DNA from: Acidobacteriota bacterium
GTDB lineage: Bacteria > Acidobacteriota > UBA890
NCBI GenBank assembly: GCA_046757445.1
Contig: JBHHYG010000001.1
Location: 1-46,869, forward strand
Length of the DNA stretch: 46,869 nt
Reading direction: 5' to 3'
Shown here: positions 9,916-30,340 of the stretch, in pieces
How positions within the stretch are numbered: position 1 is the stretch's first letter
How the letters are laid out: each line of letters opens with the position of its first letter
The notes under the pieces: model-generated
Databases searched by the model: none
What the model saw: the letters and a program-made list of their open reading frames with translations, nothing else
Told to the model about the DNA's origin: nothing
Made by a program: the position numbers and the translations under genes

Positions 9916-10399
9916 TTTCCGGCCCGCAGGCACCGTCTCCCGGGCGGAGTACTCAAAGCTACCGCCCTCATTCGCAAAGAACACCTGGAGAAAAGGGGCG
10001 AGAGGTCGTGGTCTGGCATACGAGAAGAAGTGCCAAAAGCGCCTCCTGGCGCACTATCCCGACCAGTATATTCCTGCGCCGTGGTTCCGTTTCTGGACGG
10101 CGCACGACGGTCCTCTTTGGTGTCAGCCCGATGGGCTCATTCTCGATATCCGCGGCGGGAGGGTCACTATTGTCGAGATCAAGTTGCGGCACACGAGCGA
10201 CGCCTGGTGGCAGATTCGCAAGCTCTACGAGCCCGTTCTTCGCAGCGTCTTTGGGCCGGATTGGGATTATCCCGTTCTTGAAGTCGTCATGTGGTTCGAT
10301 CCTGACACGCCTTTCCCAGAGATCCTCTGCTTTGCGCGCCATCCGCACGAAGTACCGGCCCAAGCCTTCGGCGTTCATATCTGGAACGGGAGGCAGTAG
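9881..10399 (+). CDS. PD-(D/E)xK-family nuclease-like protein
   Basis: WCQPDGLILDIRGGRVTIVEIKLRH fits D...E-x-K. Start is uncertain: ATG 9881 has a GGAGG upstream, while the track ORF opens at 9710. Confidence 0.5.
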   Translation: MLRPRPCPPPASFRPAGTVSRAEYSKLPPSFAKNTWRKGARGRGLAYEKKCQKRLLAHYPDQYIPAPWFRFWTAHDGPLWCQPDGLILDIRGGRVTIVEIKLRHTSDAWWQIRKLYEPVLRSVFGPDWDYPVLEVVMWFDPDTPFPEILCFARHPHEVPAQAFGVHIWNGRQ

Positions 10400-10626: not shown

Positions 10627-12132
10627 ATGGCTGAACCCTCAATCGCGCAGCCTACCCTAGAGGAGCTTGTCGAGCTTTGCGCCGTCGATAGCGAACTCTT
10701 CTGCCGCACTTACTTCCCCCGTACCGTGCGCCAGCCGAGCCCGGCGTTCCACGATAGGGTCTGGGCGCTCTTGGAGTCCGAGGATCGGCTCATCAATATC
10801 AGGGTCTTCCGTGGCGGGGCGAAGACCTCGATCCTCCGCATGTACACCGCCAAGCGCATCGCCTACGGTCTCGCGCACACGATCCTCTATGTTGGCAAGA
10901 GTGAAGGCCACGCTATCCGCAGCGTAAAGTGGATCCGTCGCCAGGTGCAATATAATCGCGCCTTCGCACAGACGTTCAGCCTCCGGCCTGGGAAGAAGTG
11001 GCAGGACGTTGAGGCCGAAATCTGGCACGGCGCAGATGAATATCCGGTCTGGATAATGGGAACGGGGATTACTGGATCTGTGCGTGGGATCAATCAGGAC
11101 GACTTCCGGCCTGATCTCATCGTCGTTGACGATGTTATCGACGAGGAGAACTCTGCTACCGCCGAGCAGCGGGAGAAAATCGCCAACCTCCTCTACGGTG
11201 CGCTCAAAGAGTCCCTCTCTCCGGCGACGGAAACCCCCGATGCGAAGATGGTCCTCCTTCAAACCCCGCTCAATAAGGAAGACGCGTCCACCTTGGCTGT
11301 GAACGATCCCGAGTGGAAGTCCGCGACCTTCGGCTGTTGGACGCCAGCATCCGCGGACTTGCCAATCTCGCAACAGGAGAGCACCTGGCCCGAGCGGTGG
11401 CCCAGCAAGGTGCTCCGTGCGGAGAAGGACGCGGCGATCCAGCGCAATCGACTATCGCTTTGGCTCCGAGAGAAGGAGTGCAAGCTGGTCTCTCCGGAGA
11501 CTTCTGCCTTCCGCGAGGATTGGCTGCAATACTACGACCTCGAACCGGAGAATATGGTAGTCCACATGGCTGTCGATCCCGTGCCGCCGCCGAGCGACAT
11601 ACAAGTCGCTAAGGGCCTTCGCGGTAAGGACTTCGAGGCCTTCGCCATCGTCGGCTCACACGCGGGTGAGTATTATCTGCTCGACTACACGCTCCATCGT
11701 GGGCACGAGCCGAATTGGACCGTGATGGAATTTTTCCGCCTCGCGGCGAAGTGGAAGCCGAGGAGGATTCTTGTGGAATCTACCGCCTACCAGCGCACAC
11801 TCTCGTGGCTGCTGAAGCAGGCGATGGACCACCAGCGGCGCTACTATGTGATCGAGGAGTTTGATGATAGGCGCAAGAAATTTGACCGGATTGTTGACGG
11901 ACTGTCCGGGATTGCTTCCAACAGTAAGCTTTTCGTGCGGCGCGGCCAGACGGAGTTCGTCTCCCAGTTCCGCGCGTATCCTGATGTCGCTCACGATGAT
12001 CTCATCGAAGCGGTCGCCGTCGCTGCGGCGTCGCTCGCGGGCTCCGGCTACGACGACGAGGACGGTTACGCGGAGATCTTAGCCGCCGAGGAGAACATTC
12101 CTTCGCTCCAATACTTGCGGGGGTCGCCATGA
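10627..12132 (+). CDS. terL: Terminase large subunit
   Basis: 501 aa. Motifs: RGGAKTS (Walker A-like), DLIVVDDVIDEE (Walker B), and C-terminal nuclease acidic residues (MAVDP..., HDDLIEA). Lies immediately upstream of the portal gene. Confidence 0.9.
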   Translation: MAEPSIAQPTLEELVELCAVDSELFCRTYFPRTVRQPSPAFHDRVWALLESEDRLINIRVFRGGAKTSILRMYTAKRIAYGLAHTILYVGKSEGHAIRSVKWIRRQVQYNRAFAQTFSLRPGKKWQDVEAEIWHGADEYPVWIMGTGITGSVRGINQDDFRPDLIVVDDVIDEENSATAEQREKIANLLYGALKESLSPATETPDAKMVLLQTPLNKEDASTLAVNDPEWKSATFGCWTPASADLPISQQESTWPERWPSKVLRAEKDAAIQRNRLSLWLREKECKLVSPETSAFREDWLQYYDLEPENMVVHMAVDPVPPPSDIQVAKGLRGKDFEAFAIVGSHAGEYYLLDYTLHRGHEPNWTVMEFFRLAAKWKPRRILVESTAYQRTLSWLLKQAMDHQRRYYVIEEFDDRRKKFDRIVDGLSGIASNSKLFVRRGQTEFVSQFRAYPDVAHDDLIEAVAVAAASLAGSGYDDEDGYAEILAAEENIPSLQYLRGSP

Positions 12133-12371
12133 CTAGGATCGCGCGTCTTCCGGGCGTCAGGCTTTCTCCCAAAGTCCTCCTTGCTCGAGTGCTGGAGAAC
12201 GCGGACGATCTCGAGTCGGTTGTGATTATAGAGACCCCCAAGAAGGGCGTCGTGGCAGCCTGCTGGTCCGCGCAGGAACTGCGGGATACAGCCTACGCGA
12301 TCCAGGTGCTCCGGCGCCAGTTCGATCGGGCGCTCGGAGATGAGGATTCCACTGTGGAGTCTGTTGGTTGA
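12129..12371 (+). CDS. Hypothetical protein, 80 aa
   Basis: ATGA and TGATG coupling between terL and the portal gene. Confidence 0.55.
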   Translation: MTRIARLPGVRLSPKVLLARVLENADDLESVVIIETPKKGVVAACWSAQELRDTAYAIQVLRRQFDRALGDEDSTVESVG

Positions 12372-14305
12372 TGCCCGGTCTGACCCTCGACATCAAGTTC
12401 AAGTCGCAGCTGCACCAGCTGATTATTGATGCTGTGCGCGACCGTGTACAGTTCTCGAAGCGAAAGAACGAGTCCCGCCGCAACAAGTGGATCAAGAGTG
12501 AAGAGGCAGCTCTCGCTTTCTTGCCCGAAACCGCAGTCGATGCGAAACGTAGGGGCCTCCGCGACACGGGCAAGCCCCAATACACCACCATCCAAATCCC
12601 GTACAGCTACGCCGTTCTCATGGCTTCGCACACTTACTGGACGACCGTCTTTATGTCCCGGACGCCGGTGCTTCAATTTGCAGGCCGTCATGGAGAGTCC
12701 GAGCAGCAAGTCCAGGCGATGGAGGCTCTTATCGACTACCAGGTGCAGGTGGGACGGATGCTTGTGCCGTTCTACATTTGGCTGCTCGACGGAGGGAAGT
12801 ATGGCGTCGGCGTCGTCGGCACCTACTGGGAGAAGCGCGAGTCTACAATCGCGGAGATCGTAGAGGAGGAGGAGCTTCTTCTCGGTGCGATCCCCACCGG
12901 GAGGATGAAGAAGCGCAAGGTGACTAACAGAGTCCCTGGCTATGTGGGCAACCGGCTCTACAATGTTCGCCCCTTCGACTTCCACCCCGACCCGAGAGTG
13001 CCTCTCTGGCGCTTCCAGGACGGCGAGTTCTGCGCCGTTTACAACGAACTCGGTTGGAACGAGATGCTCCGCCGACGCGACCAGGGGATGTATATTGCGG
13101 ATACCCTCAAACTTCTCAAGCCGGGCCAGCGGGGCACGGTCGGGGAGCGCGAGGCGGGCAGTGCACAACTGGAGCTTCCCGACACGGATGAGTTCTTCAC
13201 CTCTAATACGAGGGACAAGAAAGCCTCCGATATTGTCAAGATTTATGAGTGCTACATCGAACTCATCCCGAAGAATTGGAACTTGGGCCGCGGTAGTTCC
13301 CCCGAGAAGTGGGTGTTCACGGTTACTTCAGACTTCACCTTTGTTCTTGGTGCGCAGCCCCTTGGTGCCTGGCACGACTCCTTCCCATTTCACGTTATTG
13401 AGTTTGAGCCCGAAGGCTACTCGATCGTCAATCGGGGAATACCCGAAGTCCTTGATCCGATCCAGAGGACGCTGGACTGGCTGATCAACAGTCACCTGTA
13501 TAATGTGCGGAAGGCTGTGAATGATCAGTTTGTCGTCGATCCCTCGAAGATCGTGATGAAGGACTTCCAGGACCCCCTTCCCGGCGGCGCGATCCGGCTG
13601 AAGCCGAGTGCTTATGGCACCGACGTTCGGACCGTGCTGACACAGCTGAATGTGGTGGACATTACGCAGAACCACATGCGCGACCTTCAGGCCATCCTCG
13701 AGCTCGGTCAGCGCACATTGGGGGTGAGCGACCAGATCCTGGGACTTCTAGGCGCTAAGGGTGGGCGCAAGACTGCCACTGAGGTCCGCAGCTCCACCGC
13801 CTTCGGTATCAACCGTCTCAAGACCGTGGCGGAATACTTCAGTGCGATGGGTTGGACGCCAATGTCCACGATGCTGGTACAGAACTCGCAGCAGTACTTC
13901 GACACCGATCGGAAGTTCAGAGTCGTCGGCGACCTCGCCCTGGAGGCGGGGCAATCCTTCGTCAACGTCACGCCGGGCGATATTCAGGGCTTCTTCGACT
14001 TTGTGCCTGTGGATGGTACGCTGCCCATTGACCGTTTCGCACAAGCGAACTTGTGGCGTGAGCTGCTCGCCCAGATGGCGAAAACTCCCGAAGTCCTCGC
14101 GCAGTATGATCTTGGCCGTATTTTTGCCTGGGTGGCGCAGATCGCGGGGTTGAAGAACATTAATCAATTCAAGATCCAAGTACAACCCGATGCTCTACTC
14201 GCCCAACAGGCGCAGCGGGGGAATGTGGTGCCTGGGCCGGGCGCGCAGCGCGATCTGACTCGTGTGCCGGAGCCGGGCCAAATTAGCGGACTGGGGACGA
14301 CATAA
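12371..14305 (+). CDS. Portal protein
   Basis: 644 aa. Lies directly after terL and before the scaffold and capsid genes. ATG at 12371; the track start at 12368 is TTG. Confidence 0.8.
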   Translation: MPGLTLDIKFKSQLHQLIIDAVRDRVQFSKRKNESRRNKWIKSEEAALAFLPETAVDAKRRGLRDTGKPQYTTIQIPYSYAVLMASHTYWTTVFMSRTPVLQFAGRHGESEQQVQAMEALIDYQVQVGRMLVPFYIWLLDGGKYGVGVVGTYWEKRESTIAEIVEEEELLLGAIPTGRMKKRKVTNRVPGYVGNRLYNVRPFDFHPDPRVPLWRFQDGEFCAVYNELGWNEMLRRRDQGMYIADTLKLLKPGQRGTVGEREAGSAQLELPDTDEFFTSNTRDKKASDIVKIYECYIELIPKNWNLGRGSSPEKWVFTVTSDFTFVLGAQPLGAWHDSFPFHVIEFEPEGYSIVNRGIPEVLDPIQRTLDWLINSHLYNVRKAVNDQFVVDPSKIVMKDFQDPLPGGAIRLKPSAYGTDVRTVLTQLNVVDITQNHMRDLQAILELGQRTLGVSDQILGLLGAKGGRKTATEVRSSTAFGINRLKTVAEYFSAMGWTPMSTMLVQNSQQYFDTDRKFRVVGDLALEAGQSFVNVTPGDIQGFFDFVPVDGTLPIDRFAQANLWRELLAQMAKTPEVLAQYDLGRIFAWVAQIAGLKNINQFKIQVQPDALLAQQAQRGNVVPGPGAQRDLTRVPEPGQISGLGTT

Positions 14306-14610
14306 TGGATGAGCGCCTTTCTCTTGCGATCCGCACCAAGAACATCCTCTCCGCCTTCGAGCGCACGGAGGCTTGGGAGTTCCTCAAGGCGACTATTGAG
14401 GCGAACATCCAAAATAAGATCAACGCGGTCGTAGATACTCCCTTGGCGAATATGTCCGAAGCCGGAGCCCAGGAGTATGTAAAGGGCGAGATTTCTGCCT
14501 TCAAGTGGTTGCTCAATCTTCCTGCATCTCAACTAGAAGATGCTCAGAGTGTAATCGACGCTTGCAAGGAGCAGGAAGATGGCACGAAAGCCGAAAGCGC
14601 CGCCGACTGA
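14305..14610 (+). CDS. Hypothetical head-module protein, 101 aa
   Basis: TAATG coupling to the portal gene. Confidence 0.55.
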   Translation: MDERLSLAIRTKNILSAFERTEAWEFLKATIEANIQNKINAVVDTPLANMSEAGAQEYVKGEISAFKWLLNLPASQLEDAQSVIDACKEQEDGTKAESAAD

Positions 14611-15568
14611 GGCGGAACCCACAGCAGCAGTACCGGAGGAAACTCCACCCGAGACTCCTCCCGAGGCGGCAACCCCGCCCGAGGAAACGGCTCCTCCCGA
14701 GGCCCCGCCGGACGAGAGTTCGATGGAGAGCTTCTTAGAGGAACCTGAGGAGGCGATCGACCTCGACGAGACTCCCGTCGAGGAAGCGCCTCCTGAGGCA
14801 GCGGCCCCACCTGCAGAGGAACCTCCTGCGGAAGAGACTCCACCGGAACCGGCTAAGGCGCCTGCGGGCGAAGAGCCGCCTCCGGCAGAAGTTCCTCCCG
14901 CGGAAGAAGCTCCTCCTGCAGCGGAAGTGCCCGCTGCCAAACCGGCGGAGGAAGTAACTCCACCTCCCGAGCCTACGCCGGTCGAACAGCCTCCTGAGCT
15001 GACTCCTGCAGAGCTGCAGGAGACCTATAGCAAGTGGCGTGATGAGGCGATTGACCTCCTTGCGAAAGAGCACTATGCCTTGAGTGAAGAAGAGGTGGAA
15101 GAGCTCCAGACTAGCGCCGAGGCTGTAATTCCTCGGCTCATGGCGCGAGCTTACATGGACGCTACGACAGCAGCGATCGGACACATTTGGCAAGCCTTGC
15201 CAAATGCCATCAGCACGGCCCTGCAAGCGCGAGAAGCTGCCGACGGCCACGAAGGGAAATTCTTCGAGGCTTGGACGCAACTCGATCCTGTGGAGCATCG
15301 TGAGACAGTCGTTCGTCTTGGGGCGGCGTATAGGCAACTGTACCCCGCCGCTACGGCGGAGGAATTTATACGCGATGTTGGTGCCCAGGCGATGGTCGCC
15401 TTGAAGATCCCGGTAGAGCCCACGGCTCCGCCGGAGGAAGCACCGCCGCCTGTTCCGTTTCAACCGGCTACAGGCGCTCCGGGGGCCGCTGTTCCGGCGT
15501 CCGAAACTCCCATGCAGCAGGCTGACCGACAACTTTTCGATGAGCCTGATGATGAAGAGGAACTCTAA
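14579..15568 (+). CDS. Putative scaffolding protein with a long Pro/Glu/Ala-rich N-terminal region
   Basis: Sits between the portal and major capsid genes. About 150 aa of PPE/PEA low complexity are followed by a helical domain and an acidic C-terminus (DEPDDEEEL). Confidence 0.55.
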   Translation: MARKPKAPPTEAEPTAAVPEETPPETPPEAATPPEETAPPEAPPDESSMESFLEEPEEAIDLDETPVEEAPPEAAAPPAEEPPAEETPPEPAKAPAGEEPPPAEVPPAEEAPPAAEVPAAKPAEEVTPPPEPTPVEQPPELTPAELQETYSKWRDEAIDLLAKEHYALSEEEVEELQTSAEAVIPRLMARAYMDATTAAIGHIWQALPNAISTALQAREAADGHEGKFFEAWTQLDPVEHRETVVRLGAAYRQLYPAATAEEFIRDVGAQAMVALKIPVEPTAPPEEAPPPVPFQPATGAPGAAVPASETPMQQADRQLFDEPDDEEEL

Positions 15569-15587: not shown

Positions 15588-16814
15588 ATGGCAGCTGTAG
15601 CGGGACTTCGCGGAACTGGTGATTGGGGCACCGATGAACGCCCCAAGAACTTCCGCGAAATGATCCTTTTCAGGAACCCGAACGGCACTGCGCCCATCTT
15701 CGCCCTCATGGCGAGGGTGCAGAAGGAGTCGGTCGATGATCCTGAGTTCTCTTGGTGGGACGAGCCGAACGATCTCGTCCGACTTCAGGTGGCAGGGGCG
15801 CTTGGGGCGGCGGATACGGTGGTCACTGTCGACTCCGTTGACCCGACCGCGACGCTTCCCGCAAATGTCTGGGGAGTCGCCACTCACCTGAAGCCCGGTG
15901 ATCTGTTGCTGGTGGAGCCGGCGGCGGATGCTGCCACCTTCGTCAACGAGGTTATCGAAGTGGTCACGGCAATCAGCGAGACTTCATTCACCGTGAAGCG
16001 CGGTGCGTCAGGTACGACTGCCGCGGCGATTGCCGATAATTCCTTCCTGCTCTTGATCGGTTCAGCCTACTCCGAAGGCACGCCCTCGCCGAAGGCGGTG
16101 ACGAGAAATCCGATCAAGTACACGAACAAGTGTCAGATCTTCAAGACGCCCTACGAACTCACCAACACGGCGAAGGTGACTCGCACGAGAACGGGCGATC
16201 CGCTGAAGAACGACAAGAAGCGCAAGGCGTTCGACCACGCCAGAGGCGTCGAGTTGGCCATCCTCTACGGTCAGCAATCCGAAGTCACTGGGGAAAACGG
16301 TAAGCCCCTCCGCACTATGGATGGGCTGAGGAAGCAGATCCCCGGTGCGACCACGACGATCCTCGCAGCGACGAACGTGACGAACTTCCTCAATGCCGTC
16401 TTCCCGGTGTTCGACTTCGACTCGCGCGCCGGCGATGAAAGGATTGGGTTCTGCGGCAACGCGGCGCTCAATGCTCTGAACCTCATGATCCAGACTGACA
16501 CGAACACGCAAATTCAATTCGGCGGCGTGATCAATCAGTTCGGCATGAACTTCAGAGAGTTCATCATGCCGCAAGGGCGTCTCTTCATGCGGACTCACCC
16601 GCTGCTCAACCGGCATGGTCTCTATAAGAACTCGATGTTCATTCTCGACTTCAGTGTCGTCCGGTGGCGTCCATTGAGGGGGCGTGATACTTCCTTCAAG
16701 GACAACATCCAGGGCAACGACGAAGACACCCAGAAGGGGCAGTGGCTCACAGAGGCCGGTCTTGAAGTCGGCATGGGCGGATTGACCTGCGGCTACGTCG
16801 GCAACATCGTCTAG
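15588..16814 (+). CDS. Major capsid protein
   Basis: 408 aa in the canonical position, with a strong SD (AAGGAGG). The N-terminus ...GTGDWGTDERPKNFRE... resembles podoviral capsid families, from memory. Confidence 0.8.
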   Translation: MAAVAGLRGTGDWGTDERPKNFREMILFRNPNGTAPIFALMARVQKESVDDPEFSWWDEPNDLVRLQVAGALGAADTVVTVDSVDPTATLPANVWGVATHLKPGDLLLVEPAADAATFVNEVIEVVTAISETSFTVKRGASGTTAAAIADNSFLLLIGSAYSEGTPSPKAVTRNPIKYTNKCQIFKTPYELTNTAKVTRTRTGDPLKNDKKRKAFDHARGVELAILYGQQSEVTGENGKPLRTMDGLRKQIPGATTTILAATNVTNFLNAVFPVFDFDSRAGDERIGFCGNAALNALNLMIQTDTNTQIQFGGVINQFGMNFREFIMPQGRLFMRTHPLLNRHGLYKNSMFILDFSVVRWRPLRGRDTSFKDNIQGNDEDTQKGQWLTEAGLEVGMGGLTCGYVGNIV

Positions 16815-16835: not shown

Positions 16836-17180
16836 ATGGGACAAGGAAACCTTGAAGGCGGCTCCCTCAAAGATATGTTCATGAAGAACATAAAGCTGAG
16901 GAGCCGTACAGAGACCCTCGCTGCGGGGCTGACGCTGGTAGCGGACGATCCGCCACTGCAGTTCCTGAATAATGGAGGAGCCGTGAGGACGGTCGTTCTT
17001 CCGGCGGAGGCCCTCAGCGATGGACTCGTCTTTATCATCACCAATAGTGGAGGTGGCGCGTTCGCCATCACCATAAACGACGACACTCCGGCGCTGGTCG
17101 CCAGCCTGCTCCAGAACGAGAGTGCCATTTGTTTCTGCGATGGCACCTCTTGGTTTGGGCTCGTCGGTACCAGCACCTAA
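16836..17180 (+). CDS. Hypothetical virion protein, 114 aa
   Basis: AAGGAGG SD upstream. Weak pattern similarity to residues about 55-150 of the tail fibre gene 21634..22824. Confidence 0.55.
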   Translation: MGQGNLEGGSLKDMFMKNIKLRSRTETLAAGLTLVADDPPLQFLNNGGAVRTVVLPAEALSDGLVFIITNSGGGAFAITINDDTPALVASLLQNESAICFCDGTSWFGLVGTST

Positions 17181-17192
17181 GTAGGCGGTCTG

Positions 17193-17231
17193 TACCCCTT
17201 GGTTGACAATCCGTCAACCGGGGGGTATAGA
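17193..17231. promoter_or_regulatory. 35-bp palindrome TACCCCttGGTTGACaatccGTCAACCggGGGGTA, with promoter-like hexamers (TTGACA-17-TATAGA on the plus strand)
   Basis: Lies in a 69-nt gap within an otherwise gap-free operon. The RNA could form a 13-bp stem including 2 G-U pairs. A related element is at 38776..38818. Confidence 0.4.
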
Positions 17232-17249
17232 CGTCCAAGGAGATGAACG

Positions 17250-17738
17250 ATGGTAGCAGCCACTAACCCTCCAGCAGTAGGGCCGCTGAACGTCGAGACC
17301 CTCTCGAGTCAGCTCCTTAACCGCGCCGTCGGCAAGCCGGTATTGCAAGTCGATGAGGCGCTCAACGACAGCGACAAAACTTTTACCGTTCCAGCCAATA
17401 CAACTTGGGAGATCTTAAGCCTTTGGGCTGAGTTGACCACAACCGCGACTGTGGGCAACCGGCAGGTCGCCTTGGAAATCCAGGACGCCGCCGGGGACAT
17501 TATCGCGCAGGTGCGCCACGGAGTCACTCAGGCGGCGAGCCTGACGCGTAATTACCTTTTCGCCCCAGACGTAGCGGACTTAACGGCCTTCCGCGACGCG
17601 GATTATCTTTCTTCCGCGATGCCTCGGCTCATCCTGCCGGAGAGTTCGATCATCCGAGTGTTCGATAAGGCGGCAGTCGATGCCGCCGCGGACGATCTCG
17701 TCCTCCAGATGATGGTCGTCGAGAGGGTGGAGATCTAA
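17250..17738 (+). CDS. Hypothetical virion protein, 162 aa
   Basis: AAGGAG SD upstream. No recognised motif. Confidence 0.6.
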   Translation: MVAATNPPAVGPLNVETLSSQLLNRAVGKPVLQVDEALNDSDKTFTVPANTTWEILSLWAELTTTATVGNRQVALEIQDAAGDIIAQVRHGVTQAASLTRNYLFAPDVADLTAFRDADYLSSAMPRLILPESSIIRVFDKAAVDAAADDLVLQMMVVERVEI

Positions 17739-17739
17739 G

Positions 17740-18003
17740 ATGGCGCTGCATCTGGCGGAAATGCACGAAGGATCCCATCGACCTGAAGCGATCGTGCTCG
17801 AGTTGAGCGATGAGGAGATCAAGAAGTTCAAGGTCGGGCAGAAAGTCACTGTCACCATCCAGGGCTCGGTCGGGATGCTTCAAGTCCCGCCCGATGGGTC
17901 GAGTGAGGAGTTCCCCGCCGAGATGGGAGTCCGTATGACGGACAAGAAGATTGTGGGCTCCAATGAATTTGCGGAACTCTCGGAGGACGGAGAGGAGGAA
18001 TGA
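17740..18003 (+). CDS. Hypothetical acidic protein, 87 aa
   Basis: Tight packing in the operon. Confidence 0.55.
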   Translation: MALHLAEMHEGSHRPEAIVLELSDEEIKKFKVGQKVTVTIQGSVGMLQVPPDGSSEEFPAEMGVRMTDKKIVGSNEFAELSEDGEEE

Positions 18004-18006
18004 GAA

Positions 18007-18324
18007 ATGGCGATCATCCGCCGTCGAATAGCCTCCTGTGATCTCGGCGGCCGCTCGGTCGTCACCATCGCTTATGACGACCAGACGTTAGAATTTAAGG
18101 GCTTGCGGCTGCGTGGGCTATCAACTCGGCGTGTGACTATACGAATACACCGGCGGGGGCGTTCTGATCTTGTGCAAGTGCGAGGGCGGAATATCGGGAT
18201 CGACAAGACTCTCACCGCAAATTTCAAGATGGTCCGCAAGACTATTAAGGCGGGCACGCCCAAAGAACGCGAGGTTGTCGTTTTTCCGCCTCGTATTGGC
18301 GTTTCGTGCGAGTGGGTTCCATGA
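18007..18324 (+). CDS. Hypothetical basic protein, 105 aa
   Basis: Tight packing in the operon. Confidence 0.55.
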   Translation: MAIIRRRIASCDLGGRSVVTIAYDDQTLEFKGLRLRGLSTRRVTIRIHRRGRSDLVQVRGRNIGIDKTLTANFKMVRKTIKAGTPKEREVVVFPPRIGVSCEWVP

Positions 18325-19058
18325 CGCGCTTCATTCGACGCCAGCCCAAGATTATCTTCCCGGTCGGCTTTTTACTGTACCGCCCACCGCCGCTCGTGCT
18401 GGCACCGACCTTCGTTCGAGTGGCAGTCGATTCGGGCGATGGCGTAACGCAGATCGACCTCAGCATCGACATCGACGGAGCGGATCGCTGTCTGATCGCC
18501 TCCTTGTCGAGCGACGTTACAGGCACCACGACCGTCACATTCGATCCTGCGGGACCGGATGAGAAAACTGGAACTCTGATCGGCAGCACCAACTTCGGCG
18601 GGGCCACTCAATCGGATTTGTTTCACGTCGTCGGCCCGGTGACCGGGCTCGGAAAGACGGTTCGTATTGCCACTACGACCGAGATTGTCGGGGCCGTTAC
18701 CGCCCGACTGTACACGGGCGTCGATCAGACCACGCCGGTTGGAACGGCCGCGACGGCTAGCGGCGAAAGCTTCACGCCCTCAGTCACCGTTACTTCCGCG
18801 ACGGGGGAGTTGGTTGTGGACAATGTTTGTCACGCGGGCGGAGGAGCGGGAACCCCCGATGCTACGCAAACGGAGAGGTACGACAATATTGATGTGGTTG
18901 ACGGCTCGGCGCTTGGCTCGGACAAGGCGGGGGCGGCCTCGGTGGATATGGGTTGGACAATTGGCGAGGTTGCATGGGCCACTGTCGGGGCTTCGCTCAA
19001 GCCGGCGGCGGTTGCGGATGAGTTGATTCAATCGAGAAGGGCAGTAATTCAGCCATGA
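18321..19058 (+). CDS. Hypothetical virion protein, 245 aa
   Basis: Start set at the ATGA junction at 18321. Thr/Gly/Ala-rich and looks beta-rich. Confidence 0.6.
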   Translation: MTRFIRRQPKIIFPVGFLLYRPPPLVLAPTFVRVAVDSGDGVTQIDLSIDIDGADRCLIASLSSDVTGTTTVTFDPAGPDEKTGTLIGSTNFGGATQSDLFHVVGPVTGLGKTVRIATTTEIVGAVTARLYTGVDQTTPVGTAATASGESFTPSVTVTSATGELVVDNVCHAGGGAGTPDATQTERYDNIDVVDGSALGSDKAGAASVDMGWTIGEVAWATVGASLKPAAVADELIQSRRAVIQP

Positions 19059-19354
19059 CAAGAATTATTGGAAAACAGCACGTCGGATACCTCAAGAATG
19101 ACAACCGCGTCAGCGGTGGCGCGCTGGAGGAGTCGGACGTAAAGGGTTGCAACCACTGCCAGAAGATCATGACTTTAGCAGACTGGCGGAAGAAGGGTGG
19201 TTGGTGTTATTGCTGCGATAACTACGTCTGCTTTAGCTGTGTAGAGCGGACGAAGAAAGAAGGTTGCGTCCCGTGGCGCAAGTTCGTGGATCGGCAACTC
19301 GAAGCTCAAGCACAGCGACGACAACTGGAAAAAGCCTTCGGGCTAGGAGGATAA
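19055..19354 (+). CDS. Cys-rich (zinc-ribbon-like) protein, 99 aa
   Basis: CNHCQK...(16 aa)...CYCCDNYVCFSC...C gives 8 Cys in about 50 aa. ATGA coupling to the upstream gene. Confidence 0.6.
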   Translation: MTRIIGKQHVGYLKNDNRVSGGALEESDVKGCNHCQKIMTLADWRKKGGWCYCCDNYVCFSCVERTKKEGCVPWRKFVDRQLEAQAQRRQLEKAFGLGG

Positions 19355-19355
19355 G

Positions 19356-19820
19356 ATGCCAGGATACTCTGGTAATGTGGACGCATTTACGCCGTCCCTC
19401 ACCGACGACAACTATACACTCGAAGGGGACACCAGCGGTGACCTGGCAAAGGTCCGCATGGTTAACTGGGGTGGGGAGTTAGTTGCGAGTACGGCCTATC
19501 GAACTCGATGGGTCCGGCCAACGACGGCGGGCGTAGGAGCAGGAACTGCTGGGAGTGTCGAGGCGCATAACCCGCGCTTCGCGGCTCCGCTCACCTCGTT
19601 CTTCACGACTTACGCCACGACGCAGCCTGTGCTGCCTGCGACGCCAGACGCGCTCTTCCTTACTGCGTGGAACGCGCACGGCGGCTTGGGCATCCTCGTC
19701 TTGCCACCGGGGATGGAGTGGGAAGTCGCCTTCGGCCTGTTGACGGCGTCTCTCTCCTGTCGTAACCTCGTCGGCGTCGATGCCAACGGCTCGACTTATG
19801 GCATCGGTTGGGAAGAATAA
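19356..19820 (+). CDS. Hypothetical virion protein, 154 aa
   Basis: GGAGG SD upstream. Confidence 0.6.
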   Translation: MPGYSGNVDAFTPSLTDDNYTLEGDTSGDLAKVRMVNWGGELVASTAYRTRWVRPTTAGVGAGTAGSVEAHNPRFAAPLTSFFTTYATTQPVLPATPDALFLTAWNAHGGLGILVLPPGMEWEVAFGLLTASLSCRNLVGVDANGSTYGIGWEE

Positions 19821-19838
19821 AAGTAGGAGTCCTGGCGT

Positions 19839-20996
19839 GTGTCTGGCGACTACCTATATTGGCAACGCAGGCGGCACCCGGAGTGGTACCAGTCGTTCCT
19901 CCGCTCCGGGCGTCCGCCGGTTGTCGAGCCCGCGCCTGCAGCCCTGCCGGAAGGCCAGACGGCTATCACGCGGGCCGACGAGAACGTTAGCGAACGAGCA
20001 AGAAGGTATCAAAGCCTTGCTGGTTTCGACGCAAAGATCACATCTACCAAACTACCGGAGGGCGAGACTCTCCTCAGCCGAGCGGACAGAATCGTCCGGG
20101 AAGCGTCCCGTAGTTATCAGTCCCTTGTTGACTATGACCGGAGAATATCGGCCCCGCCGCAAGAACTGCCCGAAGGCAAACAGGCGTTCACCCGCGCAGA
20201 CGAGCGAGTCGCTGAACGAACTAGACGTTATCAGAGTTTCGCTCAATTCGATGCGAAGATTGCGTCTACTAGACTGCCGGAAGGGCAACGTGTACTCACT
20301 CGCGCAGATGCGATCGTCGCCGACCGGACTCGCTACCAGACCTTCACGGACTTCAACCGGAGAATTGCGGTTGAGGCCGAGGCACTTCCGGAAGGGCGCC
20401 AAGTCGCTACTCGCGCTGATGCGCCAGTCGCCGAACGATCTCGGCGGTATCAGAGCCTCGTCGATTACGATAGGAAGATCCCCGACGCGCCGATTGCTCT
20501 TCCTGAAGGGCGGCAAGTATTCACGAGATCCGACAGGGATGTTCGACGTCTTGATCAACTCCAGTCCTTCATCGACTTCGATAGGAAACCGCCGTCGAAA
20601 CTGCCGGAAGGCAGCATCCTCGTCACGAGGGCCGACGAGCACTTCCCGGGCCGGAGTTTGCGATATCAGAGTTTTGTCTGGTTCGATGCGAAGATACCAC
20701 CCGAGGTCTTCGTCGATCTACCGGAGGGTCGAGCTTTCTTCACTCGGGCGGACGAGACCGTCGCAGAAAGGGTGCTTCGCTATCGGAGCTTCGTTACTAA
20801 GCCAGAACACTTTACACGCCACTGGGCGGAGGAAGCCATGCTCATGGACGGTTGGGCGCCGGAAGCTATGCTGGCTGGGGTTTGGAGTAAGGAAGCCGCT
20901 GCCGCCGGCGCATGGGCGAAGGAAGCTGCGGCTGCAGGCGCCTGGAGTGAGGAAGGCGCAGCCGGTGGCACATGGGATAAGGAGGGGTCGAGATGA
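19839..20996 (+). CDS. Tandem-repeat protein, 385 aa (8 x about 37-aa LPEG...TRAD...RRYQSF..FD.KI repeats plus about 5 x 10-aa W-x-x-E-A repeats)
   Basis: GTG start 9 nt after AGGAG. The repeats are visible directly in the translation. ATGA coupling to the downstream gene. Confidence 0.7.
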   Translation: MSGDYLYWQRRRHPEWYQSFLRSGRPPVVEPAPAALPEGQTAITRADENVSERARRYQSLAGFDAKITSTKLPEGETLLSRADRIVREASRSYQSLVDYDRRISAPPQELPEGKQAFTRADERVAERTRRYQSFAQFDAKIASTRLPEGQRVLTRADAIVADRTRYQTFTDFNRRIAVEAEALPEGRQVATRADAPVAERSRRYQSLVDYDRKIPDAPIALPEGRQVFTRSDRDVRRLDQLQSFIDFDRKPPSKLPEGSILVTRADEHFPGRSLRYQSFVWFDAKIPPEVFVDLPEGRAFFTRADETVAERVLRYRSFVTKPEHFTRHWAEEAMLMDGWAPEAMLAGVWSKEAAAAGAWAKEAAAAGAWSEEGAAGGTWDKEGSR

Positions 20997-21634
20997 CTCG
21001 GGATGAAGCAGTGACGGAGGTGCAACGGGGTCTCGGGTTTCGCACCGACCTCGCGACGGAGATCATAACTGCGTTGAAGACTGTGCAATCGGAACTCGAG
21101 CGCCGCGCGACTTTGCCGTGGTTTCTACTCACGGAAGTCGCGAGCGCGAGCACGGTGAAGGACGAAGAGCGCGTCCCGGTTCCCTCCGACTTCCTCCGAG
21201 AGTATGAGGAGGACGCCCTGCACTACTTTAACGGCGCAACTGGGGTTGCCGATGAGGACGTATGGACGCCGCTCGCTAAGGACGACCTTGAGTTCCTCCG
21301 CGACGAGCTACCCGGCAGCGGCGCGCCGCAGGCTTACGCACTTGATGTGAAGTACTTTCGCGTTTTTCCAACGCCTGATGCGGTCTATACTCTTAAGCAA
21401 ATCTACTACAAGACGGATACGGTGCTCAATTCAAACATCGAAAATCAATGGCTGAAGTACGCCCACGCGCTGTTGATTGGAGAGGCGGGGATTAAGATAG
21501 CCTCGGGACTGCGCGATAAAGAAGGGCTCCCCCTCTTCCAGTCTATGGCGCAGCGAGGTGCAAATGACCTGCTCGTGGAGAATGAGGCGCGAGCGCACGA
21601 AGGAAGACGCTACATCATGGGAGGGCCGGACTGA
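20993..21634 (+). CDS. Hypothetical virion protein, 213 aa (possible head-tail adaptor)
   Basis: Lies just before the tail fibre gene. The YFRVFPTPDAVYTLKQIYY pattern is reminiscent of adaptor/neck proteins. Function is tentative. Confidence 0.55.
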   Translation: MTRDEAVTEVQRGLGFRTDLATEIITALKTVQSELERRATLPWFLLTEVASASTVKDEERVPVPSDFLREYEEDALHYFNGATGVADEDVWTPLAKDDLEFLRDELPGSGAPQAYALDVKYFRVFPTPDAVYTLKQIYYKTDTVLNSNIENQWLKYAHALLIGEAGIKIASGLRDKEGLPLFQSMAQRGANDLLVENEARAHEGRRYIMGGPD

Positions 21635-22824
21635 TGGGTCTCGAAGTTGGCACTTTTGTATCCGATCTTGTCTCGAGCAACCCTCCTGGGACTGACGTTA
21701 AGGGTCAAGGGGACGACCATCTTCGCCTGATTAAATCCGTTCTTCAGTCAACGTTCCCGAACGCTTCGAGGGCGTTCCGCTTCTCCGCCGCGGCGGCGGC
21801 AAAGGTCGCAAACTACACTATTCTCGCCTCGGATGAGAATGCGCTTATCCGAATGGACGCGACGGCTGCGGCCCGCACGGCTACGCTGCCGCTGCTGAGT
21901 ACTGTGTTTGCGGGCTATACCGTCCTCGTGATGAAGTCCGACTCCAGCGCGAACGCTGTTACTGTTGATGGGAATGGTGCTGAGACGATCAACGGAGCAG
22001 CAACTCGGACGTTGAGTGCCCAGTACGAAGTCGAGGGTTATATGTCCGATGGGGCTGAGTGGAAGCTTGTCCACGAGGGCACCTTGGGACTTGGTGCGCT
22101 CGCGGCGCTTGGAGTCGGCACCGGCCTGGTCTCGGCGGGCGGGAACGCGGATCTCGACGTTGCAGGGCTGACTGCGGAGACTGTCCCAGCGGTCGGGGAC
22201 GAAATCGCCATCGAGGACGTGAGTGTTCCTGGCAAGAGGAAGATGACCCTCGAGAACCAGATGAAGATTATCAACGTCCTCACGGCGCTCACGGCTCCGG
22301 CGCTCGCAGACAAGCTCTCTATCTATGATGATACTGCTGCCGCGGCACGCAGTATCACACCGGACAATTTGTTGAAAGTGATCGACCTGTTGACCGCGCT
22401 AGGGGCCAGTGTTGATAAGGCTGCTGACAAGATACCGATCTATGATGCCACGGCAGGCATTGTCAAGACTGTCTTTCCGAACGACATAGCTACGGAAGAC
22501 GCCGCAAAGGCTCACGGTCAATTTACTGTCGCAGGAGTGCTTCAGGGGCCGGACAAGGGCATTACCAGCATAACAGATAACGGCGTGGGTAACTGGACCG
22601 TGAATCTGACCGTCAACTTTGCTACTGCAGACTACGCGCCCTTCGGCACGGGACGGAACATAGGTAACAATGGGGGCGACGACGTGCTGATCGCGTACGG
22701 TGTGGAGACCCTTCTCGTAGGGAGTTACGTCGTCAGAGCGCACGAGGCAACCGGCGCGATTAACCCGCCTGGTAGAGATCCCCGTACTGGTCTTGTCCAT
22801 ACCGTGGCTTTTGGAGATCAGTGA
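21634..22824 (+). CDS. Tail fibre protein
   Basis: The N-terminus GTFVSDLVSSNPPGTDVKGQGDDHLRLIKSVLQSTFPN matches the conserved N-terminal motif seen in many phage tail fibres (from memory). Confidence 0.65.
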   Translation: MGLEVGTFVSDLVSSNPPGTDVKGQGDDHLRLIKSVLQSTFPNASRAFRFSAAAAAKVANYTILASDENALIRMDATAAARTATLPLLSTVFAGYTVLVMKSDSSANAVTVDGNGAETINGAATRTLSAQYEVEGYMSDGAEWKLVHEGTLGLGALAALGVGTGLVSAGGNADLDVAGLTAETVPAVGDEIAIEDVSVPGKRKMTLENQMKIINVLTALTAPALADKLSIYDDTAAAARSITPDNLLKVIDLLTALGASVDKAADKIPIYDATAGIVKTVFPNDIATEDAAKAHGQFTVAGVLQGPDKGITSITDNGVGNWTVNLTVNFATADYAPFGTGRNIGNNGGDDVLIAYGVETLLVGSYVVRAHEATGAINPPGRDPRTGLVHTVAFGDQ

Positions 22825-23887: not shown

Positions 23888-24220
23888 ATGGCGAAACGCC
23901 CGAGTTGGCTTACCTTCAAAAACGTCGCCGGCGGCATTGTGCTGTTCTATGCTGCCGCGGCGTCGCTTGCCCTTCCCGTCCCACGGTGGACCTGGATTTG
24001 GGAACACGAGGCACTCGCGACGGAGTTCTATAATGCCCGGATAAGGACGGACCTCCGCATTTATGGCGACTTGACTGACCGGATTTGCACCGCCTTGCGG
24101 AAGGGGCAGCAACCGAGGACTGACCAAATCCTCCGCTGGAGGGCTCTCGCAGAGGACATCAACAAGATGGCGCGCAAGCTCGGGCGTAAGCCGGTGCCGT
24201 CTGTGAGGCCGCGATGTTAA
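23888..24220 (+). CDS. Membrane protein, 110 aa (single N-terminal TM; holin, antiholin or i-spanin candidate)
   Basis: Hydrophobic segment VAGGIVLFYAAAASLALPV. Lies immediately upstream of the endolysin and overlaps it. Confidence 0.5.
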   Translation: MAKRPSWLTFKNVAGGIVLFYAAAASLALPVPRWTWIWEHEALATEFYNARIRTDLRIYGDLTDRICTALRKGQQPRTDQILRWRALAEDINKMARKLGRKPVPSVRPRC

Positions 24221-24651
24221 CCAAGTCTGTCCACTTCGAGCACTGGTCCGAATTTCCCAAGTCTCAATGGCGGTGGAAGAACTTCACACCTCGGGAGATG
24301 CGGTGTAGGGGGACGGAGAAATTGCTGATTGTACCGGAGTTCATGGACCAGCTGCAGTCCCTCCGCGATGGGCTGGGTTTTGCGCTCCCGGTGAGTTCGG
24401 GGTTTCGGACTCCCGGATACAACGAGAAGGTCTCCTCAACCGGAAGGGACGGACCACACACTACGGGGCACGCAGTAGACATTCTCATCTATGGGAAGGA
24501 GGCTTATGAACTTATCGCGGACGCAACGACTTATGGCTTTCCCGGCCTAGGCATGAAGCAGCACGGGCCTTACGAGGAGCGCTTCGTCCACCTCGACGAT
24601 CTGGACGAGGTACCCAGGCGGCCAAGGCCTTGGCCCTGGACGTACAAGTGA
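24214..24651 (+). CDS. Endolysin, peptidase M15 (VanY / M15_3-like) family
   Basis: FTPREMRC...LPVSSGFRTPGYNEKV...GPHTTGHAVDI...FVHLDD matches the Zn-binding H...D...H layout of the M15 peptidoglycan peptidases. Confidence 0.8.
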   Translation: MLTKSVHFEHWSEFPKSQWRWKNFTPREMRCRGTEKLLIVPEFMDQLQSLRDGLGFALPVSSGFRTPGYNEKVSSTGRDGPHTTGHAVDILIYGKEAYELIADATTYGFPGLGMKQHGPYEERFVHLDDLDEVPRRPRPWPWTYK

Positions 24652-29165: not shown

Positions 29166-30340
29166 TGCCGCCCGTCCTTCCGCCCACGCCCCCCGCAGGA
29201 GTCGGCCTGGGCCAGCTTGTGCAGCCTTCTCCAGTCCAACCGGCAGCACCTCCGCAGACTGGAGAGGAGCAGCAGGCGCTGGAGTTCAAGTGGCGCGAGT
29301 TCCTTGGCCGCCCCGAGGTTCGCGCGGCGCTGCTGCAGTTCTCCGTCAATATCCTTCAGCCGAAGCCAGCGGGGCAGACTACCCTTGGGGCCATTGGGAC
29401 TTCGATTGGTGCTGCAGGCGGGGCGGCGGAGAGAGTACGCGCGCACGAGATTGAAGAAGAAGAGCGCCTGAGGCGCGCCGGGATCGAGGAGCGTCAGATC
29501 GCTACGGAGGAGGAGCGTACTGGGATCGCCGGCGAGAGAGTTGATGCCTTCCGAGAAAGGACTGAGGCGGAAGAGCGCGTCGCGCGCGCGAACCGACGAG
29601 CGGAAGCTGCGCGCCTCGCCGCGAAGCTTCGCATTAAGCTCAAGATTGCCGAGGATAGCGAGGATGCCCAGTTGCTGAACCGTATCATCCAAGAGGCCTC
29701 CGACCGGAACGAGGCCGCGGGGAAACTTGGAGAGGCGGTTCCCCCGCTGGACCCCGCAGCTGTTCTCAACGAGTTTGATAGGATCAAGCGGGGCATTGCG
29801 CTGCGGGAGGATCTCGAAGCCGGGAGGCCCCTCAATGTTCCCGACTCGGACGTGGCTGCACTACTTCAATCAACCGATCCGCGTGCTCAGTCGGCTTTGC
29901 GTCTAGTCCCGCCCGACCAGCTCGCTAGGGTGAGGGCGCAAGTCGAAGCGGCCACTCCGGGAGTGATCACTCAGGAGCCAACGCCTAAGCCAGAAGTTCC
30001 CGCTACTGGGAGGATAGAGCCTCCAGTTCCTGCGCCGAGAGCTGACCCGATAGCGCAAGCGATCGCGACTCTCCCACGGGTGACTGCCGATACCGCCCCG
30101 AACATCTCGGCGCAAGCCCGACAGCGGGCAGAGTTCATACTGCCGCCTACTGCCGAGGAGGTGAGCGACGCCTCGTGGTTGGAAATCCAGAATAATCCCA
30201 TAGCGCGGGCCGTAGCTGCCGAGAGGTATGGAGAAGAAGTCGTTGCCGCTGCGGTGGATAAAGCGCGAGGCCGTCCCGCCATTCGGGAGAAGGCTCGCGA
30301 AGCAATCGAGCGTCACAGACGCGAGACCGGCCAGCGATAA
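29162..30340 (+). CDS. Glu/Arg/Ala-rich, coiled-coil-like protein, 392 aa
   Basis: Central segment EEEERLRRAGIEERQIATEEERTGIAGERVDAFRERTEAEERVARANRRAEAARLAAKL. TAATG junction to the giant ORF. Confidence 0.6.
   Translation: MMPPVLPPTPPAGVGLGQLVQPSPVQPAAPPQTGEEQQALEFKWREFLGRPEVRAALLQFSVNILQPKPAGQTTLGAIGTSIGAAGGAAERVRAHEIEEEERLRRAGIEERQIATEEERTGIAGERVDAFRERTEAEERVARANRRAEAARLAAKLRIKLKIAEDSEDAQLLNRIIQEASDRNEAAGKLGEAVPPLDPAAVLNEFDRIKRGIALREDLEAGRPLNVPDSDVAALLQSTDPRAQSALRLVPPDQLARVRAQVEAATPGVITQEPTPKPEVPATGRIEPPVPAPRADPIAQAIATLPRVTADTAPNISAQARQRAEFILPPTAEEVSDASWLEIQNNPIARAVAAERYGEEVVAAAVDKARGRPAIREKAREAIERHRRETGQR

Follow-up and report, generated by a model that had tools for sequence, protein, structure and literature searches.

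What does the gene that lies just upstream from the head-to-tail adaptor gene encode in the phage on contig JBHHYG010000001.1 (Acidobacteriota bacterium, assembly GCA_046757445.1), and what does its product do? The window, by which we mean the whole stretch of 46,869 nucleotides that was analysed, carries there an open reading frame (ORF) for a protein made up mainly of eight tandem repeats, referred to here as LPEG units after the four residues with which each of them begins. We find that this ORF is a real protein under purifying selection and that, as far as sequence comparison can tell, it represents an undescribed repeat family that is very rare in phages. It belongs to a three-gene cassette, likewise undescribed, that comprises a Cys-rich, zinc-finger-like protein, a 154-aa protein and the repeat protein. 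Our favoured interpretation, to which we assign a probability of roughly 0.4, is that the repeat protein is a non-core appendage of the virion, such as a fibre on its side, neck or head, or else a decoration.

The first-pass annotation had described a protein with eight consecutive units at this place, and translation, the positions of LPEG and a hidden Markov model (HMM) of the unit all agree with that description. The residue and codon positions at which LPEG begins are the first positions of the eight units in Table 1. Unit length ranges from 34 to 40 aa, slightly wider than the 34–39 aa first reported, and unit 8 is without the FDxKI half. Throughout the family the unit (~36 aa) follows the motif LP[EP]G-x4-[TS]R[AQ][DE]…[YF]QS[FL]…IP, in which Pro2, Gly4 and Arg10 are invariant. 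An HMM built from the eight units of the window alone matched seven units in an independent homolog, P0001, with 227 bits, whereas composition-matched shuffled controls (n = 120) scored at most 3 bits each, placing the repeats far above chance. When the same model was run across the window, its match was confined to the repeat ORF (342 bits; runner-up 6 bits). A 196-aa antisense ORF lies inside the array (20052-20642, minus strand); the antisense frame has three stops across the gene, and this ORF may be an ordinary high-GC antisense effect.

The array is flanked by two further elements. In the N-terminal module, the segment HPEWYQSF is a copy of the second half of a unit, and the half-unit proposed earlier at this position is both real and conserved in homologs. 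At the other end, tryptophans at aa 329, 339, 349, 359, 369 and 379 mark out five full decapeptides and a 7-residue end, which corrects the original count of about five units to six Trp anchors. Tandem Repeats Finder detected this tail alone in the gene (30-nt period, 3.3 copies), and among all the fetched loci that were compared it was seen only in the window phage. Charged residues (D/E/K/R) make up 31% of the repeat protein and aromatic residues ~10%.

The divergence of the units at the DNA level had been taken as a sign of selection rather than of recent slippage, and we could confirm that they are old duplications held by protein-level selection. Unit cores share a mean nucleotide identity of 58.5% within the gene, and where two units have the same residue they use the same codon in 41% of cases, close to the 36% expected from codon usage; together, these values indicate old duplications. 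Synonymous sites are near saturation among the units and saturated between lineages, where observed codon identity equals that expected. Comparison of the repeat genes of loci L004 and L007 revealed divergence in the order third > first > second codon position, which identifies the annotated frame (frame 0) as the one under protein selection.

To place the protein in a wider context, a profile of the repeat unit was searched against 1.84 billion representative proteins, and further members were collected through gene neighbourhoods. The profile search gave just seven matches, of which three (P0004, P0006 and P0007) were spurious, being translations of simple tandem repeat DNA. The family amounts to six genes on metagenomic contigs, with 8, 8, 12, 12, 16 and 16 units: the window protein (385 aa, 8 units; identical on Logan contig L009), P0001 of locus L003 (331 aa, 8 units), an unnamed protein of L012 (475 aa, about 12 units), P0005 of L008 (479 aa, about 12 units), P0002 of L004 (598 aa, 16 units) and P0003 of L007 (615 aa, about 16 units). 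DNA-pattern scans of IMG/VR and the JGI metagenomes, using the protein and family alignments, found no member beyond the known L012 contig, and a genome scan likewise gave no member. Source runs of family members are SRR29324609, SRR29324611 and SRR29093003.

Comparison of the members revealed a modular design. The N-terminal motif Y-x-YW…PE-x-YQS is common to four of the six LPEG proteins and to a chimeric protein of locus L010; P0002 and P0003 have a different N-terminus (IYSYGRDRL), of which mere fragments align to this module. The C-terminal tails differ by lineage, with Trp decapeptides in the window, a basic YKPxIRPRRR sequence in L003 and L012, and DALF mini-repeats in L004 and L007. 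The L010 chimera (384 aa) consists of the N-terminal module and a first LPPG unit, followed by about fourteen unrelated 21-aa repeats of Gly/Thr/Gln/Leu character, GTGVQTLAALLQAGVGV, and by a tail with mini-repeats of its own (RFIDQQRDTT/RSIDQQLDTT). This exchange of one array for another points to a design in which a conserved N-terminal piece is combined with a repeat array that can be exchanged and with an end that varies.

Counting repeats among related phages was a check suggested in the first-pass annotation, which had also considered a scaffold whose repeat number sets a length, for example a dimension of the capsid or tail. A modular array encoded in a structural operon would suit such a ruler, and the capsid is of the SU10 family, SU10 itself having a prolate head (PMC9509320). 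However, the range of 8–16 units occurs in phages of similar size, and the 8-unit window phage and the 12-unit L008 phage both have SU10-type capsid and portal genes. The array of L010 is swapped for another type of repeat, and a scaffold candidate is already encoded upstream of the capsid gene (Table 1). The gene is also missing from the cultured phages that are nearest in their capsid protein; these are Microcystis phage Mel-JY34 (47%) and Vibrio phage VS-ABTNL-3 (45%), both with unrelated genes between capsid and adaptor. We therefore give a length-setting role almost no credence. Two proteins of these phages, the 864-aa protein of Mel-JY34 and the slot protein of VS-ABTNL-3, were considered as LPEG relatives and rejected, as their unit HMM scores were no better than those of shuffled sequences. 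The VS-ABTNL-3 slot protein (PVS_14, L002 10338-11324) is itself repeat-rich, with Ser-rich units of ~18 aa, and its C-terminus has tryptophans at 10-11-residue spacing, WNSDSTVDGNWSADSEGSSNGWTPDEF, with no HMM similarity to the LPEG unit.

An all-against-all gene comparison over 13 loci identified the partners of the repeat gene. The 154-aa gene is present in 12 of these loci, the Cys-rich gene lies directly 5′ of it in nine, and the LPEG gene occurs in six; no other gene is conserved. The cassette is thus an invariant pair of Cys-rich and 154-aa genes, to which the LPEG gene is added as an optional third member. In L003, L007 and L010, homologs of both partners lie just 5′ of the repeat gene. 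The 154-aa homolog precedes that gene in L004 and L012 as well, and is three genes away from it in L008; the partner pair is also found in L005, L013, L014, L015, L017 and L018. The 154-aa protein, with the motifs WNAHGGLG and GVDANGSSY, belongs to a family of 60 homolog clusters, and it is 65% identical between the window and L003, compared with 38% for the repeat protein. In Pfam, the ~99-aa Cys-rich protein gave a weak, sub-threshold match to the FYVE zinc finger alone; neither partner otherwise matched the profile libraries, the Protein Data Bank (PDB) or cultured phages, the last searched by tblastn and megablast.

The backbones that carry the cassette are diverse, and include SU10-like phages (the window and L008), a temperate, integrase-bearing phage (L007), a phage whose portal is P22-type (L013) and two contigs from metagenome-assembled genomes, of Elusimicrobia and Variibacter. 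In every case the cassette lies in a late operon, where its neighbours encode pectate-lyase-like tailspikes, proteins with a LamG domain or small Ig-like (BppU_N-like) proteins, or where lysis genes follow just 3′ of it. The repeat gene of L007 is located 3′ of tailspike/LamG genes and 5′ of an Ig-like protein and lysis genes; in L003 and L012, as in L007, it ends the tail-fibre/tailspike block before the lysis genes; and in L008 it follows a gene for a LamG_3 protein, upstream of the portal gene. The L010 chimera is followed by a BppU_N-like Ig protein, and a protein with a weak Beta_helix match is encoded further upstream. The 154-aa gene is followed in L013 and L014 by one for an enzyme-like protein of ~165 aa.

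Loci without the LPEG gene often have other tandem-repeat proteins nearby (L005, L013, L018). A 788-aa protein of L005 (11951-14317) consists of GAPSITKPTSAGTAEIIKT repeats; it was rejected as an LPEG relative, its unit HMM score being no better than those of shuffles. An 835-aa protein of L013 (9425-11932) and a protein of L014 (8287-9618) have a central RWY-x-DD domain with PEG…IPDAP motifs scattered around it, and a 199-aa protein of L018 (7500-8099) has five units of ~30 aa with ITRQELP…SRFYA.

Assigning a fold to the repeat protein has proven difficult. Searches of Pfam, PHROGs, NCBIfam, PADLOC and PDB sequences, with the single sequence and with profiles, returned no match, which bears out the initial impression that the repeat is unlike described families. 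A Pfam scan at E ≤ 0.1 gave a noise match to DUF6403 alone (13.7 bits, against a cut-off of 26.9), a profile of four-unit blocks had no match among PDB sequences at E ≤ 10, and no match was found in cultured phages by tblastn or megablast. Modelling with AlphaFold2, another of the checks proposed at the outset, yielded no usable fold in two runs. The first, on a three-sequence alignment, produced a weak model with two strands per unit and a predicted local distance difference test score (pLDDT) of 36. The alignment was then deepened by stacking repeats; overlapping windows were re-staggered by MAFFT, while non-overlapping four-unit blocks stacked well, and the prediction from the latter was coil with no secondary structure (pLDDT 35). 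Foldseek searches with the weak model gave insignificant beta-helix-like matches (best E = 0.9, TM ≤ 0.17). Each unit is probably a β-hairpin. The proportion of aromatic residues and the strand-like conserved motifs argue against pure disorder, and an obligate oligomer would account for the failure of monomer prediction.

Eight units preceded by a half-unit also call to mind an eight-bladed β-propeller, closed by the N-terminal half-unit as ‘velcro’, in which case the 16-unit proteins would be double propellers and the whole might serve as a compact receptor- or carbohydrate-binding head. The correspondence of the half-unit to the second half of a unit and the counts of 8 and 16 fit such a fold, and a unit of ~36 aa is near the length of short propeller blades. 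Nevertheless, no propeller-repeat profile was matched in Pfam at E ≤ 0.1, and AlphaFold2, which usually performs well on propellers, stayed at a pLDDT of ~35 and placed two strands in each unit where a blade requires four. Neither the 12-unit members nor the swap of the array for 21-aa repeats on the same N-terminal module suits a closed ring of this kind, and we consider a propeller improbable.

The modular design is among the reasons why we favour a virion appendage. Phage fibres usually combine a conserved anchor with a shaft that can be exchanged, and the joining of the same N-terminal module to 8, 12 or 16 LPEG units, or to a 21-aa array, supports a protein of this type, as do the tails that differ between lineages and the invariably late, structural contexts. 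The two strands per unit in the weak AlphaFold2 model were counted in its favour as well. In this view the protein would be docked by its N-terminal module, either to the virion or to its 154-aa partner; the array would make up an extended shaft, altered in length through gain, loss or swap of units; and the tail would provide a lineage-specific, variable distal or assembly end. The sequences show the architecture, the selection on the repeats, the rarity of the family and the cassette with its genomic contexts; location in the virion, fibre shape, the docking role and the oligomeric state are features that we infer. The earlier proposal of a fibrous or decoration component survives as the best guess from layout and contexts, although AlphaFold2 offered no usable model of it.

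Several observations weigh against this interpretation. No cultured phage has the repeat protein or its partners, and all members are metagenomic. The structural searches were poor (pLDDT 36 and 35, best Foldseek E = 0.9), and a protein in which 31% of residues are charged could be partly disordered. The role had first been argued from the position of the gene next to the adaptor, an argument that fails for its relatives in L007, L003, L012 and L008, where the gene is not beside an adaptor gene; as the position varies, membership of a virion module is read from the neighbouring genes alone. Finally, the behaviour of the cassette is that of a mobile accessory module, a class whose members can have non-structural roles.

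This last point leads to a rival explanation, in which the cassette is a late accessory module that acts within the infected cell, in host takeover, as an assembly aid or in the modification of fibres. The repeat protein would then bind in a multivalent manner and be disordered for the most part. Its varied sites in SU10-like, P22-portal and integrase-bearing temperate backbones are in keeping with this idea, as are the optional nature of the repeat gene (found in 6 loci, compared with 12 for the 154-aa gene), the enzyme-like gene that follows the 154-aa gene in L013 and L014, and the high charge and lack of a stable AlphaFold2 fold. However, ~10% aromatic residues and conserved strand-like motifs are atypical of disordered proteins, and the unit motifs are under strong purifying selection at saturating divergence. 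The repeat gene is always co-directional with its neighbours in late operons beside fibre, spike or Ig-like genes, in the window it is coupled to the adaptor gene, and PADLOC gave no match. On balance, a role in the infected cell seems to us a serious but rather unlikely alternative to a virion appendage.

The repeat gene has a second unusual property which, like its partner genes, was not part of the first-pass annotation. Its +1 frame is free of stop codons over the whole gene, and ORFs equivalent to this one are found in the same relative frame in L003 and L007, extending to as many as 593 codons in L007; in both loci +1 stops bracket the gene tightly (Table 1). In a synonymous shuffle, wherein codons were randomised while the protein and the codon pool of the gene were kept, the window had 0 stops in the +1 frame against 5.1 ± 1.5 expected (P = 0.0005), L003 had 0 against 7.7 (P < 0.0005), L007 had 2 against 8.9 (P < 0.0005) and L004 had 5 against 10.6 (P = 0.012). 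A context-aware null, for which the probability of a codon given its amino acid and the next base was learned from the other genes of the window, yielded 0 stops against 6.6 for the window (P = 0.0003) and 2 against 13.6 for L007 (P < 1e-4), the lowest P among control genes being 0.02. Codon permutation gave P ≤ 0.0002 in the window, L003, L007 and L004, with 6.3 stops expected in the window (P = 0.0002). By the combined synonymous-shuffle and codon-permutation criterion of Schlub et al. 2018 (PMC6188560), the window, L003, L007 and L004 all qualify as candidates for an overlapping gene.

Among the 28 genes of the window, the repeat gene is the sole outlier in depletion of +1 stops (z = -3.3; others -1.7 to +2.3), and a generic bias at codon junctions was ruled out as the cause both by the context-aware null and by the other 27 genes, which served as controls. 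The depletion can be followed at the level of single codons: Leu, Ile and Val codons that end in A are common where the next base is C or T (7/27 cases for the window and 13/35 for L003) and never occur where it is A or G, the context that creates a stop (0/31 and 0/27, respectively). Because synonymous sites are saturated between lineages, the open frame was not passively inherited. We regard selection for openness of the +1 frame as established, though not every member displays it. The synonymous test showed no depletion in L012 (14 stops against 16.8 expected) or L008 (15 against 14.7), with L012 mildly depleted by codon permutation (14 against 23.4, P = 0.0014), and the +1 frame of L004 has interrupting stops.

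Potential start sites for the second frame vary as well. In the window and in L003 (1420-1435, GGAG), the two overlapping GTG codons are arranged as Shine-Dalgarno (SD)-N7-GTG for the +1 frame and SD-N9-GTG for the main frame, whereas L007 has AAGGAG-N12-ATG for its +1 frame; L012 (~515-528) retains GTGTG, but its +1 frame closes after ~20 codons. A frameshift that would fuse the 154-aa protein to the +1 ORF was ruled out in L007, where +1 stops intervene at 9975 and 10002.

The openness could reflect a second protein that matters only by its composition, or tolerance of ribosomes that initiate in or slip into the +1 frame and reach the coupled downstream gene. The first possibility implies that the gene is dual-coding over its full length, with a same-strand +1 ORF that selection keeps open in three or more synonymous-saturated lineages; its 389 codons from GTG 19837 would be translated from the shared Shine-Dalgarno sequence or from a start of their own, and it would be compatible with an appendage role for the main product. 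The hypothetical +1 products are polycationic and Ser/Arg/Leu-rich, with a pI of 10-12 and a net charge of +23 to +86 (pI 12 and +66 in the window), and would function by composition rather than sequence, for instance in nucleic-acid binding. Alternatively, the absence of stops from the +1 frame would allow ribosomes that start there to reach the start of the adaptor gene.

Depletion of stops in the window, L003, L007 and L004 by synonymous shuffle and codon permutation and in the window and L007 by the context-aware null, the outlier status of the gene with stops so close to its ends, the avoidance of stop-creating codon junctions in the window and L003, the absence of passive inheritance and the retained start sites all speak for dual coding. 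Nonetheless, conservation of the +1 product between the window and L003 does not exceed what frame 0 imposes (identity 0.188, null 0.181, z = 0.4), and between L004 and L007 the frame-0 third positions, which are the second positions of the +1 frame, are the most variable, with no drop in synonymous variability. The behaviour of L012, L008 and L004 described above, including the early closure of the frame after GTGTG in L012, also argues against a second protein, and the +1 product had no profile match. According to one report (bioRxiv 10.1101/724807), prokaryotes have almost no same-strand overlaps longer than 60 bp, which likewise counts against it. We thus regard a translated, full-length second gene as doubtful. 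A stop-free frame of this length is a statistically strong anomaly and bears on the origin and persistence of long overlapping ORFs in DNA phages, and if dual coding were true the repeat protein would be a permissive host for overprinting. To our knowledge, few gene pairs that overlap on the same strand of a double-stranded DNA phage would then be as long.

Table 1. Positions of the repeat gene, its parts, its neighbours and related open frames (coordinates are those of the window unless a locus is given)
Feature	Position	Strand	Remarks
Repeat-protein ORF	19839..20996	+	GTG start, TGA stop; 385 aa; gene call on identical Logan contig L009
N-terminal module, aa 1-35 (DYLYW…HPEWYQSF)	19839..19943	+	kept in P0001, L012, P0005 and the chimeric L010 protein
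Unit 1, aa 36-71	19944..20051	+	unit HMM 48 bits
Unit 2, aa 72-109	20052..20165	+	unit HMM 41 bits
Unit 3, aa 110-145	20166..20273	+	unit HMM 55 bits
Unit 4, aa 146-182	20274..20384	+	unit HMM 39 bits
Unit 5, aa 183-220	20385..20498	+	unit HMM 59 bits
Unit 6, aa 221-254	20499..20600	+	unit HMM 37 bits
Unit 7, aa 255-293	20601..20717	+	unit HMM 49 bits
Unit 8, aa 294-328	20718..20822	+	degenerate C-terminal half; unit HMM 41 bits
Trp-anchored decapeptide tail, aa 329-385	20823..20993	+	W at 10-residue spacing, x6
Shine-Dalgarno AGGAG	19825..19829	+	9 nt before main-frame GTG, 7 nt before +1-frame GTG
Overlapping starts GTGTG	19837..19841	+	GTG 19837 = +1 frame; GTG 19839 = main frame
Stop-free +1 stretch over whole repeat gene	19744..21006	+	+1 stops at 19741 and 21004 alone
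+1 mechanical ORF	19780-21006	+	408 aa; 389 codons from SD-served GTG 19837
+1 open stretch, L003	1329-2453		bracketing +1 stops 1326 and 2451
+1 open stretch, L007	10005-11786		bracketing +1 stops 10002 and 11784
+1 open stretch, L004	533-1888
Chimeric L010 gene	L010 8481-9635		ENA ERZ23500231 scaffold_466; partial copy L011 2691-3287
Cys-rich ~99-aa protein, first cassette gene	19055..19354	+	four CxxC-type pairs; 51% identical to L003 homolog
154-aa partner protein, second cassette gene	19356..19820	+
Large terminase	10627-12132	+
SU10-type portal	12368-14305	+
Probable scaffold, upstream of capsid gene	14579-15568
SU10-type major capsid protein	15588-16814	+
SU10-type head-to-tail adaptor	20993..21634	+	PF24175, E=8.5e-12
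Tail-fibre protein	21634-22824	+

In the window, the repeat gene is part of a long co-directional late operon on the plus strand and lies, as originally described, between SU10-type capsid and adaptor genes, its TGA overlapping the ATG of the adaptor gene as ATGA. It is the last of eight unrecognised ORFs in this interval; the five between the capsid gene and the cassette (16836-19058; 114, 162, 87, 105 and 250 aa) have no recognisable family, and the capsid-to-adaptor slot extends to ~4.2 kb, compared with one to three genes in relatives. Scans of the window for promoters and terminators, and with Rfam, found no element above chance. Downstream of the tail-fibre gene, a Peptidase_M15_3 endolysin-like gene (24214-24651, annotated via the identical contig L009) precedes the gene for a 526-aa nozzle-like structural protein, and the small genes around it may be a lysis cassette. 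Further downstream, the operon has ejection-protein-like genes and the gene for a giant protein of 1986 aa (30340-36300), whose C-terminal region has matches among giant proteins of phages, one of them a PHROG with the annotation DarB-like antirestriction; it is encoded downstream of the ejection-protein-like genes and is probably itself ejected, as an internal protein.

The new repeat family and its cassette are not placed by current profile libraries, structure databases or AlphaFold2. If the repeat protein is a virion appendage, its building plan would be new for phage fibres or decorations of variable length, and it would be a candidate determinant of host range or environment binding in uncultured podophages.

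Comparison with known systems helps to define what is new. In SU10, gp10 is an Ig-like putative minor capsid protein encoded between the gp9 capsid and gp11 adaptor genes, and it was not seen in the cryo-electron microscopy map (PMC9509320). The repeat gene of the window occupies the same capsid-adaptor slot, and both proteins are non-core; however, the repeat protein has another architecture, with no Ig or Big match in Pfam or PHROG, and the slot is not shared by the repeat genes of L007, L008, L003 and L012. Siphophage tape-measure proteins also combine tandem repeats with regularly spaced aromatic residues, as in the Trp at every tenth residue of the window tail. Unlike these, the main LPEG repeats are probably not helical and their copy number tracks no known dimension; moreover, the window phage is podophage-type and has an SU10-type adaptor, and its annotated module contains no recognisable gene for a tail tape-measure protein.

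With respect to the second frame, the closest parallel is overprinted genes such as lambda Rz1, which lies in the +1 frame of Rz. The LPEG +1 ORF has the same frame relation and is significantly long in several lineages, and many overprinted proteins are basic and of low complexity, as the hypothetical +1 product would be. It differs in that the overlap covers the whole gene, 1.16-1.78 kb, whereas all phage overlaps known to us are far shorter; in addition, the +1 product is not conserved, L012 and L008 lack the feature, and translation is putative.

The most instructive comparison for the repeat protein itself is with fibres that have repeat shafts, namely T4 gp12, gp34 and gp37 (‘Phage_fiber_2’), the triple β-spirals of adenovirus and reovirus, and the head fibre gp8.5 of phi29. 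The LPEG protein has no sequence or profile similarity to these proteins and does not match PF03406, and its unit of 34-40 aa, with no evident internal duplication, differs from the ~15-residue repeat of the triple β-spiral. What it has in common with them is the plan, in that a conserved N-terminal anchor is followed by a shaft of repeats, which vary in copy number, and by a distal end that is also variable, the repeats are putatively β-rich with conserved Pro/Gly turns, and the gene resides near those for tail fibres, tailspikes and Ig-like proteins.

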